Below, one piece after another: positions 2,242 through 4,503 of a stretch of 64,000 nt of DNA. The notes beneath the pieces are model-generated. The model was not told the origin of the DNA. It ran no database searches and was given only the letters and a program-made list of their open reading frames with translations. Each line of letters opens with the position of its first letter. The first letter of the stretch is position 1. The stretch lies in the NCBI RefSeq assembly GCF_054482595.1, contig NZ_CM137008.1; one strand, 5' to 3'. The position numbers and the translations under genes were made by a program.

Positions 2242-4503
2242 TCAATTCTCTTGCCCCAGCGCCTGCGCCAACTGCGCACGGGTAAAGGGTTTGCGCAACA
2301 GCGCCACGTCTGGCAGCGCGGGGTTATGGCTGGGGCGTAAATCCTGACCGCTGATGAGTAGCAGCGTCAGGTGCGGGTAAAGTTTGCGGGCCGCATTGAC
2401 CACTTCTGCGCCGCTCATGCCGCCGGGGAGCATTAAATCGCTGATAAAAATATCGATTTCTGCTGATGCCGCCAGCAGATCCAGCGCCTGTTCGCCGCTG
2501 CTTGCTTCCAGCGTCAAATAGCCCAGCAGGTGCAACTGTTCGCAGATGGTCTGGCGCACCGCGGCTTCATCTTCCAGCACTAACACCAGTTTATCGCCGC
2601 TGACAGAAGCCTGTTCTACTGCCGCTGGCGATAGGTTTTTCGCCGCCGTCAGCGCGCGGGGAAGCTGTAATCTGACCGTTGTCCCCTGCCCCGGCGCGCT
2701 TTCAATTTCAACGCGCCCACCGGACTGGCGCACAAAACCATAGACCATCGACAAACCCAGCCCGCTGCCGCTGCCCGTCTGTTTGGTGGTAAAGAATGGC
2801 TCAAATACCTGGCTTTTCACCGCCTGCGACATACCGCTGCCATGATCGATGACCTCCAGTGCCACCATGTCCTGACGCTGCCCACTGCTGCGAGTAACGC
2901 GCTGATTCCAGGTACGAATTTTGATGATTCCCGTCTGCCCTTCCATCGCGTCACGGGCGTTCATCACCAGGTTGATGATGGCATTTTCCAGTTGGCTGAC
3001 GTCAATCCACGCGGGCCACGCCGGAGACTGCGCTTCAATCTCCAGCGCCAGCGTTGCCGGTAAGGAGTGGCGCATTAATTCGCTTAACTCTTCCAGCAAT
3101 GTTTTCAGTTCAACGGCTTGCGGATGTAAGGACTGCTTGCGGGAAAACGCCAGCAGTCGTTGTGTCAGTAGCGCCCCACGTTCGGCAGCTTGCAGCGCCC
3201 GCTGTATTCGCGGCGCGTCTGGCGAGTCCGGATTCACCAGCTCCAGGCTGCCAATAATCACCGCCAGCAGATTATTAAAATCATGGGCCAGCCCGCCCGT
3301 CAGTTGCCCGACCGCTTTCAGTTTCTGGCTGTGTAATAGCGCCTCTTCCAACCCCTGCCGCTCAGTTTGGGCAATCTCCATCTGCGTGGTCTTCTCTTTT
3401 AGCAGCCGTGAGGTTCGTTCGAGTGACTCGGTATTGCGGGCAAAAACGTTAAAGGCGCGCGCCAGTTCACCCAACTCATCACGCCGCTGTAACGCCGGAA
3501 AAGTGACGTCCGCTTCGCCGTACGCCAGGCGGCTCATGGCGCGGGAAATCGCCGTCAGGTTAGTGCCGAGGTTGCGATAGATATACCAGCCGGCAAACGC
3601 GGTGATCACCACCGCTAACAGGGCGAAAATCATGATCACCCTCTCGCCGGAGCGCAAATCCTGGTAACTTTGCGCCACGCGCTGACCGGAGAGCGTCGCC
3701 ACCTGTTCGGCGTAACGGTTGATGTCGCCATTGAGGATCGCCACCAGCGCTTTGATGTGAAACATATACCAGCTGATTGCCAGATCGCTTTGCTCCAGAG
3801 CGGCAGAAAGCGGCGCGAGTTTACGCATTTCATCATTGAAATCATTGAGTAACGTATTAACCAATGGCATATCGCTGTGGGTCGGCAACGCAGACATTAC
3901 CCCGACCAGTTGATGAATAATCGCCTGCGGCGCGGGGGTGGCAATAGCGGCAACAATCAGTCGGTTCATCTCGTTAAGCAAAATATCATCTTGCGCGTGA
4001 GTGACTTTTTGCAGATGCCGCAGATAACTTAAGTTTTGATACAGCGAACTTAACAGCGCGTTGCGCTCCAGATGCCGCCTTTGCCCGCGCTCCAGCATAC
4101 CGCCGACGCTGGTTTGCAGTTCGTTGCTACGCGTGATGATTCGCGTCACCAGCCCGGCTTCCTGCTGCGCTAAAGGCGCGTTCGCCAGTTGTGCAAGCGA
4201 GCTTTTTAATGCCCGCTGTGTCTCCTGCAACCGCTCGGCTTCGCCTTTATATTCCAGCGCTCCCACCACCTGCGACAATCGCACCGCCGCCGTTGCCACG
4301 TTTGCCGTGTCGCGCGCCAGATTCAGGCTGCCGGTCATATCATCCACCGTTTGCTGCTGCACCAGCTCCTGCATCTGGCTGGCATGACGAAAGCCCATTA
4401 CCGCCACGCCGCTGACCATCAACGTCACCGCCACCACCAGCAAATTCAAAAGCAGCAATCGCCCGCGCGCGCTGGCAAAAAAATGACGTCCGGGGTGCGC
4501 CAT
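2242..4503 (-). CDS. Hybrid sensor histidine kinase: two TM helices flanking a ~300 aa periplasmic domain, HAMP, HisKA, HATPase_c, C-terminal receiver
   Basis: H-box LAHDFNNLLAVIIGSLEL, N-box NLVMNARDAM, G-boxes DHGSGM and GSGLGL, receiver motif DIFISDLMLPGGMSG. Start placed at ATG 4503 (GGAG SD upstream); the longer ORF-track start at 4680 would overlap the divergent ABC gene. Confidence 0.85.
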   Translation of the reverse strand: MAHPGRHFFASARGRLLLLNLLVVAVTLMVSGVAVMGFRHASQMQELVQQQTVDDMTGSLNLARDTANVATAAVRLSQVVGALEYKGEAERLQETQRALKSSLAQLANAPLAQQEAGLVTRIITRSNELQTSVGGMLERGQRRHLERNALLSSLYQNLSYLRHLQKVTHAQDDILLNEMNRLIVAAIATPAPQAIIHQLVGVMSALPTHSDMPLVNTLLNDFNDEMRKLAPLSAALEQSDLAISWYMFHIKALVAILNGDINRYAEQVATLSGQRVAQSYQDLRSGERVIMIFALLAVVITAFAGWYIYRNLGTNLTAISRAMSRLAYGEADVTFPALQRRDELGELARAFNVFARNTESLERTSRLLKEKTTQMEIAQTERQGLEEALLHSQKLKAVGQLTGGLAHDFNNLLAVIIGSLELVNPDSPDAPRIQRALQAAERGALLTQRLLAFSRKQSLHPQAVELKTLLEELSELMRHSLPATLALEIEAQSPAWPAWIDVSQLENAIINLVMNARDAMEGQTGIIKIRTWNQRVTRSSGQRQDMVALEVIDHGSGMSQAVKSQVFEPFFTTKQTGSGSGLGLSMVYGFVRQSGGRVEIESAPGQGTTVRLQLPRALTAAKNLSPAAVEQASVSGDKLVLVLEDEAAVRQTICEQLHLLGYLTLEASSGEQALDLLAASAEIDIFISDLMLPGGMSGAEVVNAARKLYPHLTLLLISGQDLRPSHNPALPDVALLRKPFTRAQLAQALGQEN

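Follow-up and report, generated by a model that had tools for sequence, protein, structure and literature searches.

A TorS-like sensor domain predicted in the LmvK/RbfS hybrid histidine kinase and a candidate binding-protein route for its sugar signal

The hybrid sensor histidine kinase gene at positions 2242..4503 (minus strand) of a 64-kb stretch of DNA (64,000 nucleotides of contig NZ_CM137008.1, NCBI RefSeq assembly GCF_054482595.1; hereafter the window) lies beside a sugar operon and a response regulator gene. This locus is almost certainly the published LmvK/RbfS-LmvR/RbfR system with lmuXYZIAK, located in Escherichia coli O-island 167, and as such is already known and not new. The periplasmic domain of the kinase is predicted to be a TorS-like helical bundle, and the kinase has no HPt. 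A mechanism for the whole system can be proposed with some reserve: phosphate would pass directly from H407 of the kinase to D54 of the regulator, the C-terminal receiver of the kinase would be a side branch, and the sugar signal would arrive through the periplasmic sugar-binding protein LmuZ on the TorS-like bundle.

The system was published as RbfS/RbfR (Liu et al., PNAS 2022, PMC9860305) and as LmvK/LmvR with the lmuKAIZYX operon (Yang et al., mBio 2023, PMC10128022). A 2024 review treats both names as one system sensing 'riboflavin/mannose'. The two papers name different signals (riboflavin versus mannose and lyxose) and disagree on the need for an HPt, and a ligand-binding site is given in neither. 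In E. coli O157:H7 the pair is reported to promote type III secretion and colonisation of the gut.

The identity of the locus is visible at the level of DNA, protein and gene order. The window is E. coli chromosome; its 9.2-kb block (2242-11401) shares 99.3% DNA identity with E. coli O157:H7 and 99.4% with O145:H28, and the kinase gene is 100% identical to that of the E. coli urine isolate XH990, a non-O157 background. Gene order and insertion site (yjdP / yjcS, with phnP-yjdP on one side) are the same in XH990 and O157:H7 MB41-1. The regulator has the same accession (WP_000805929.1) in the window match and in O157:H7, and the match of the isomerase to PDB 3KMH (4e-160) agrees with the O-island 167 identity. 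The published O157:H7 copy thus has the gene order, site, regulator and regulator box of the window, but its kinase differs: 748 of 756 residues are identical, with five substitutions and one FND copy fewer in the window. The latter reflects a tandem 9-bp duplication (FND, 3 aa) in the O157:H7 periplasmic domain, absent from the window allele (3835-3843 region, aa ~221-224). Because of this duplication the published residue numbers (H410, D692) equal the window numbers plus three (H407, D689). The block is intact in 410 of 5426 complete E. coli genomes and has relatives in other species, so its members are real genes and not chance open reading frames.

Predicted fold of the periplasmic sensor domain

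The kinase open reading frame starts with an ATG at 4503 and encodes 753 aa; RefSeq calls the same coding sequence ('hybrid sensor histidine kinase/response regulator'), and Pfam domains were found along it. The protein has an Arg-rich N-terminus and two transmembrane segments by hydropathy (~aa 15-37 and 287-309) that flank a ~250-aa domain, and its C-terminus is a receiver (Pfam); the two transmembrane helices, the periplasmic domain and the receiver were already given by a preliminary description made from the sequence. Since the N-terminus is Arg-rich, the ~250-aa segment was placed in the periplasm.

The periplasmic sensor domain (aa 38-286; 3646..4392, minus strand) was modelled using AlphaFold2 with a 10-sequence alignment, and the predicted structure is all-helical (mean pLDDT 83). 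The best Foldseek hit was the TorS sensor domain (3I9Y, E 8.6e-4, target TM 0.70); PilJ, the TorS-TorT complex and McpS came next. The model suggests that the domain belongs to the helical bimodular (HBM/TorS-sensor) class as a TorS-like two-tier four-helix bundle and that it is not VirA-like. A review of receptors that are stimulated by binding proteins (PMC8050422) classes TorS as 'HBM-like' and VirA as 'dCache-like'. PDB searches with the periplasmic domain, using both the single sequence and the 10-sequence profile, returned nothing past HAMP and did not find TorS, so the link to TorS comes from the predicted fold.

The sensor appears to form a narrow family, as a search of aa 15-313 against 1.84 billion representative proteins produced only 79 matches, mostly fragments. 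Four polar periplasmic residues (T66, Y85, H144, Q156) are invariant down to relatives of 21-25% identity, and four others (R75, Q78, E84, R143) are near-invariant.

Kinase core, phosphate path and known systems

Downstream of the second transmembrane segment Pfam detects HAMP (aa 309-358), HisKA (399-458), HATPase_c (501-616) and Response_reg (640-749), and no Hpt. The HAMP linker (3430..3579, minus strand; PF00672, E 2.7e-7) also matches HAMP structures in a profile search. The kinase core (aa 399-616; 2656..3309, minus strand) carries the phospho-acceptor H407 in an AHDFNN box and is of the CckA/FixL/VirA type. Its best NCBIfam models are PRK13557, CckA (2e-89) and VirA-like (1e-64), and the closest solved cores are CckA (5IDJ, 3e-40) and FixL. 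The receiver (2257..2586, minus strand; PF00072) has intact D645, D689, S718 and K738, and the protein ends 4 residues after it.

All 88 orthologous kinases recovered also end a few residues after the receiver; 85 of these are distinct full-length sequences, some with 21-25% sensor identity. No Hpt-annotated gene is present in the RefSeq annotation of the 64-kb stretch (the rest of the genome lay outside this check), and no Hpt family was detected among the neighbours in five Pfam-annotated orthologous contexts. Pfam, the window annotation and the whole orthologue family therefore agree with the earlier statement that neither an HPt domain nor an HPt gene is present. Longer relatives (~870 aa) were considered as HPt carriers and rejected: their extra ~100-115 aa are a PAS_7 domain between HAMP and the kinase core. 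In the 85 distinct orthologues the H-box is invariant. The receiver positions D645, D689, S/T718 and K738 are likewise conserved in all 85, so the receiver is probably phosphorylated.

According to Liu 2022 (PMC9860305), the purified kinase autophosphorylates and hands phosphate directly to the regulator in vitro; this is the transfer that the preliminary description had named as a check. Since direct transfer from kinase to regulator has been published, the missing HPt is not a puzzle that calls for a binding protein, and the most economical account is that phosphate passes directly from His to Asp while the receiver forms a side branch. Phosphate would move from H407 straight to D54 of the regulator, with no HPt. 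The receiver (D689) would then not be a relay step and may act as an internal competitor or sink, as an inhibitor, or, like the VirA receiver, as a domain for docking or modulation. The receiver of VirA is regarded as a sink, inhibitor or docking domain (ref. 107 of review PMC8050422). The model drawn by Yang 2023 (PMC10128022) weighs against a direct path, as it includes an 'unknown Hpt', and it stays a formal alternative.

In sequence the core and receiver are closest to CckA (the NCBIfam and PDB 5IDJ matches above), but the sensor and the biology are unlike those of CckA and LmvK scores far below equivalog cut-offs. CckA relays through the phosphotransferase ChpT. A phosphotransferase partner like ChpT is encoded neither in the window nor next to any of the orthologues examined. 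Phosphorelays of the ArcB/BarA/EvgS/RcsC type differ in the same respect, as no HPt was found in or encoded with LmvK (Pfam, five neighbour contexts, 64-kb annotation).

TorS/TorT appears to be a better analogue than VirA/ChvE on modelled structure, because the predicted sensor fold is of the TorS/HBM type while VirA is dCache-like (PMC8050422). As seen for TorS in the TorS-TorT complex (PDB 3O1H), the predicted periplasmic sensor of LmvK is a bimodular four-helix bundle. Unlike TorS, LmvK has no HPt, so there is no His-Asp-His-Asp relay (TIGR02956: 137 bits, cut-off 676.5), and its core with the HDFNN box is of the CckA/FixL/VirA type. LmuZ differs from TorT in being part of an ABC importer operon and not a dedicated signalling protein (TorT models: 42 bits, cut-off 200; 23.6 bits, cut-off 310). 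Models for TorS, TorT, TorR, VirA, VirG and ChvE all fall far below their curated cut-offs.

Like LmvK, the kinase VirA is membrane-bound and has a periplasmic domain, a core from the same subfamily, a C-terminal receiver without HPt and direct transfer to an OmpR-family regulator. In the VirA system the sugar-binding protein of a transporter (Peripla_BP_4) is the co-sensor, a coupling that is putative for LmuZ. However, the VirA model NF010411 scores 218.9 bits (cut-off 647) and covers only the kinase core and receiver (aa 376-750), and the linker of LmvK is HAMP whereas that of VirA is phenolic-sensing. LmvR reaches 179.8 bits with the VirG model (cut-off 344), and LmuZ 44.2 bits with the ChvE model NF040907 (cut-off 460), although the orthologues of LmuZ fall in the same Pfam family, Peripla_BP_4. 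The VirA/ChvE-style arrangement suggested earlier was thus right in part. The core and the regulator resemble VirA and VirG (NCBIfam 1e-64 and 7e-53, both below cut-off) and HPt is missing, but the sensor is predicted to be helical and not dCache-like. The xylose sensor XylFII-LytS/YesN of Clostridium beijerinckii (PDB 5XSJ/5XSD) is different again: LytS has a single four-helix bundle and belongs to another kinase class, and XylFII serves only in sensing and is distinct from the binding protein that the transporter uses, whereas LmuZ is a component of the importer.

Candidate routes for the sugar signal

Lyxose and mannose induce the lmu operon, and induction on mannose requires both the kinase and the regulator (Yang 2023, PMC10128022). 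Growth on lyxose requires the kinase, the regulator, H410 (H410A is defective), D54, lmuI and lmuZYX (PMC10128022), and oxygen is required for function (Yang 2023). The kinase and regulator are a working pair which controls the adjacent sugar operon in response to sugars, as the preliminary description had supposed (PMC10128022). Liu 2022 (PMC9860305) reports that 20 uM riboflavin makes the purified kinase autophosphorylate more strongly and induces rbfS and rbfR; a plasmid with rbfSR alone is enough to give other serotypes and C. rodentium a riboflavin response.

The entry point of the sugar signal would be the TorS-like helical bundle in the periplasm. Of several options, the likeliest is that sugar-loaded LmuZ, the transporter's own binding protein, docks on the bundle in the way TorT docks on TorS, in which case LmuZ would set the specificity of uptake and induction together. 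By analogy, this binding-protein route may be how the sugar is read, at a confidence somewhat short of even. The fold predicted for the sensor matches that of TorS, which receives its ligand on a class I binding protein from the superfamily of LmuZ, and it also matches the HBM class, in which CtpL uses PstS (PMC8050422). Lyxose and mannose, the two inducers, are also the two sugars that the cell needs the island to use, and the lyxose growth effect maps to lmuI and lmuZYX (PMC10128022).

Comparative data point the same way. A species scan (one genome per species, with five closer sensor sequences as the query) uncovered sensor relatives in at least 151 species genomes of Enterobacteriaceae, and 80 loci were retrieved from Escherichia, Citrobacter, Enterobacter, Leclercia, Kosakonia, Raoultella, Buttiauxella, Cedecea, Atlantibacter and others. 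The kinase gene is divergent from lmuX-lmuY-lmuZ in every locus with enough flanking DNA, including the distant loci L007, L009 and L010, and the regulator remains linked with the kinase and the ABC transporter across species. The linkage of kinase and transporter is invariable even where sensor identity is 21-25% or where catabolic genes were lost. These genes vary: one locus (L003) has an FGGY kinase beside the transporter, and in seven others (L052-L054, L066 and L073, from Raoultella and one Enterobacter sp., as well as L040 and L061) the isomerase, aldolase and sugar kinase genes are absent but the kinase, lmuXYZ and the regulator are kept. Such losses suggest that the sensor and the transporter together make up the conserved core of the module. 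Of all proteins in the block LmuZ evolves most slowly, with a median identity to the window of 94.9% in Enterobacteriaceae and 75-79% in distant loci. Its conservation exceeds that of the ATPase in 76 of 76 loci (median 94.9% vs 89.7%), a strong constraint, though one seen without a control transporter for comparison.

Several observations weigh against a signal carried by LmuZ. The likeness to TorS is at the fold level, with no sequence-profile match. The kinase sensor region diverges fast (61-79% identity to the window in Enterobacteriaceae, 21-25% in distant loci) while LmuZ hardly changes (75-98%); partners in tight co-evolution would show another pattern. Mouse colonisation is not reduced when lmuKAIZYX, and with it lmuZ, is deleted, whereas deletions of the kinase or the regulator do reduce it (PMC10128022); the kinase therefore has an output which does not need LmuZ. 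The riboflavin effect on the purified kinase took place with no binding protein present, and rbfSR alone transferred the response to other hosts (PMC9860305). Lastly, a fused LmuZ-(GGGGS)8-sensor protein was modelled in AlphaFold using a paired, shallow 17-row alignment. Both domains folded, the linker was disordered (pLDDT 30) and no confident interface was predicted (pTM 0.48), a weak test given the monomeric sensor and the lack of coordinates, a predicted aligned error and a control, and better read as uninformative than as a negative.

The same mouse phenotype and the same fused model would fit direct sensing, in which lyxose or mannose binds in a pocket of the LmvK periplasmic bundle and LmuZ serves transport only. 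This explanation is implicit in both papers. HBM domains of the same fold bind small ligands directly (McpS binds malate or succinate), and the eight invariant and near-invariant polar residues of the sensor listed above could line such a pocket. Yet sugar binding to the kinase is shown nowhere in Yang 2023 (PMC10128022), and the listed solved structural neighbours bind organic acids or use a binding protein, none of them binding a neutral sugar. Direct sensing also leaves unexplained the linkage of the kinase with lmuXYZ and the extreme conservation of the binding protein, and on balance is rather unlikely. A poorer candidate is riboflavin as the physiological kinase ligand, with sugar effects that are indirect (for example by way of growth state, oxygen or some other path to the regulator). 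The purified-kinase and plasmid-transfer results above favour it, as does the finding that mannose induction of the locus of enterocyte effacement (LEE) requires the regulator and not the kinase (PMC10128022). However, operon induction on mannose needs the kinase, lyxose growth needs the kinase and its H410 (PMC10128022), the available part of PMC9860305 reports no binding constant or site, and kinase, regulator and box are locked to the lyxose/mannose operon in at least 80 loci of many genera, most of them without LEE. Riboflavin in this role is improbable.

Similarly improbable is transport-coupled or cytoplasmic sensing, in which the kinase would read LmuXY activity or an internal metabolite through the membrane and HAMP (or PAS), leaving the periplasmic bundle structural. 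Transporters act as co-sensors in DctA/DcuS and PstSCAB/PhoR. The conserved minimal unit here is the kinase with a complete transporter and the regulator, many orthologues have a cytoplasmic PAS_7 between HAMP and core, and deletion of lmuZYX impairs lyxose growth (PMC10128022). On the other hand, the E. coli protein lost the PAS and still responds to sugars, the 250-aa periplasmic domain with its conserved motifs is kept in all relatives, and the in vivo difference between the lmuKAIZYX and kinase deletions (PMC10128022) is not expected if the transporter gives the signal.

The stronger claim that LmuZ is the true sugar receptor of LmvK is slightly more tentative than the route itself. It would make the system a three-component sensor, with a TorS/TorT-type input, a ChvE-like shared binding protein and a VirA-like output that skips HPt.

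Control region, operon and spread of the module

The six genes lmuXYZIAK are located between the kinase gene and the regulator gene, and the operon is divergent from lmvK. The binding protein and the OmpR-type regulator lie where the preliminary description put them (RefSeq, NCBIfam). lmuX (4617..6137, plus strand, as are all the operon genes) encodes a sugar ABC ATPase with two ATP-binding domains (NCBIfam AraG/XylG/RbsA-like, below cut-offs; RefSeq coding sequence), and lmuY (6134..7108) encodes the permease (NCBIfam RbsC-like; RefSeq). LmuZ (7127..8068), the candidate co-sensor, is a class I periplasmic sugar-binding protein of Peripla_BP_4 with a Sec signal peptide ending AQA|KE. It matches RbsB-like NCBIfam models (1e-43), weakly TorT (5e-11) and ChvE (1e-11), and PDB 4RWE (3.6e-167). 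The catabolic part consists of lmuI (8123..8806; D-lyxose/D-mannose isomerase, NCBIfam NF051472 438 bits, cut-off 350; PDB 3KMH/3MPB 4e-160), lmuA (8821..9681; ketose 1,6-bisphosphate aldolase, NCBIfam NF005284 575 bits, cut-off 406) and lmuK (9678..10679; PfkB-family sugar kinase, NCBIfam ribokinase/PfkB-like), for which fructokinase activity has been reported (Yang 2023, PMC10128022). The OmpR/PhoB-family response regulator gene lmvR / rbfR follows on the minus strand (10676..11383; NCBIfam OmpR 2e-56, VirG 7e-53).

The kinase gene and lmuX are separated by a 113-bp divergent control region (4504..4616). It contains the LmvR/RbfR box ATATGACAAATATGA (4530..4544, plus strand), a direct repeat ATATGA-N3-ATATGA that is exact here and is the sole match in the window. 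The published DNase footprint of LmvR (-41 to -62 of PlmuX) includes this repeat and lies just upstream of the -35 region (PMC10128022). Upstream of lmvR or lmvK no second regulator box was found at up to 2 mismatches. A scan of the spacer for a consensus sigma-70 promoter gave no match, consistent with a promoter that depends on an activator. The conserved element CTGACATTTTGCATTTAC (4552-4569), downstream of the box, probably contains the -35 region (TGACAT) of such a promoter. In nearly all related loci, across genera, the box, in the form [A/C]TATGACAA[A/T]TATGAA, and CTGACATTTTGCATTTAC are conserved at 84-97 nt upstream of lmuX, and a recognisable TATGA repeat is still present upstream of lmuX in distant loci. 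For the ler promoter, the sites given for the same regulator differ between the two papers (TCTCACATAATTTATATCATT vs ATTTTA-N3-ATTAGA), and neither closely resembles the conserved TATGA repeat.

By length the orthologous kinases form two groups: those of ~755 aa, without PAS_7, occur in Escherichia, Citrobacter, Enterobacter and Leclercia, and those of ~855-873 aa, with PAS_7 between HAMP and the core, in Kosakonia, Raoultella, Buttiauxella, Cedecea, Atlantibacter and distant relatives (the window gene at 2242-4503 was compared with L002, L003, L007, L010, L029, L037-L039, L046, L051-L054 and L065-L090). From these sequences the E. coli kinase looks like a PAS-deleted derivative.

Some neighbouring genes were also noted. 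In the distant locus L007 a flavohaemoprotein-type gene with globin, FAD-binding and NAD-binding domains (L007:8708-9862) is found between the ABC operon and the kinase gene. In the XH990 sequence matching the window, RefSeq annotates espX5, a type III secretion effector gene with pentapeptide repeats, at ~34858-36150. A distant kinase relative (L006) has pentapeptide-repeat and SopA_C genes beside the kinase, and the likeness to espX5 in the window is probably coincidence.

The 410 E. coli genomes with the locus include non-EHEC (enterohaemorrhagic E. coli) isolates from urine, poultry, pig and duck. The published account, which confines rbfSR to EHEC and O55:H7, gives a much narrower range. 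The comparative data show a sugar module that is widespread among enterobacteria and not an EHEC-specific virulence sensor, which changes the view of its role in LEE regulation. A TorS-like sensor beside a binding protein offers a concrete, testable model that could explain both the reading of the sugar and the report of two signals. If it is true, the two published signals would be reconciled, with sugars acting through LmuZ and riboflavin acting on the kinase in another way, and the system would add a case in an enteric pathogen of a transporter's own binding protein feeding a kinase.

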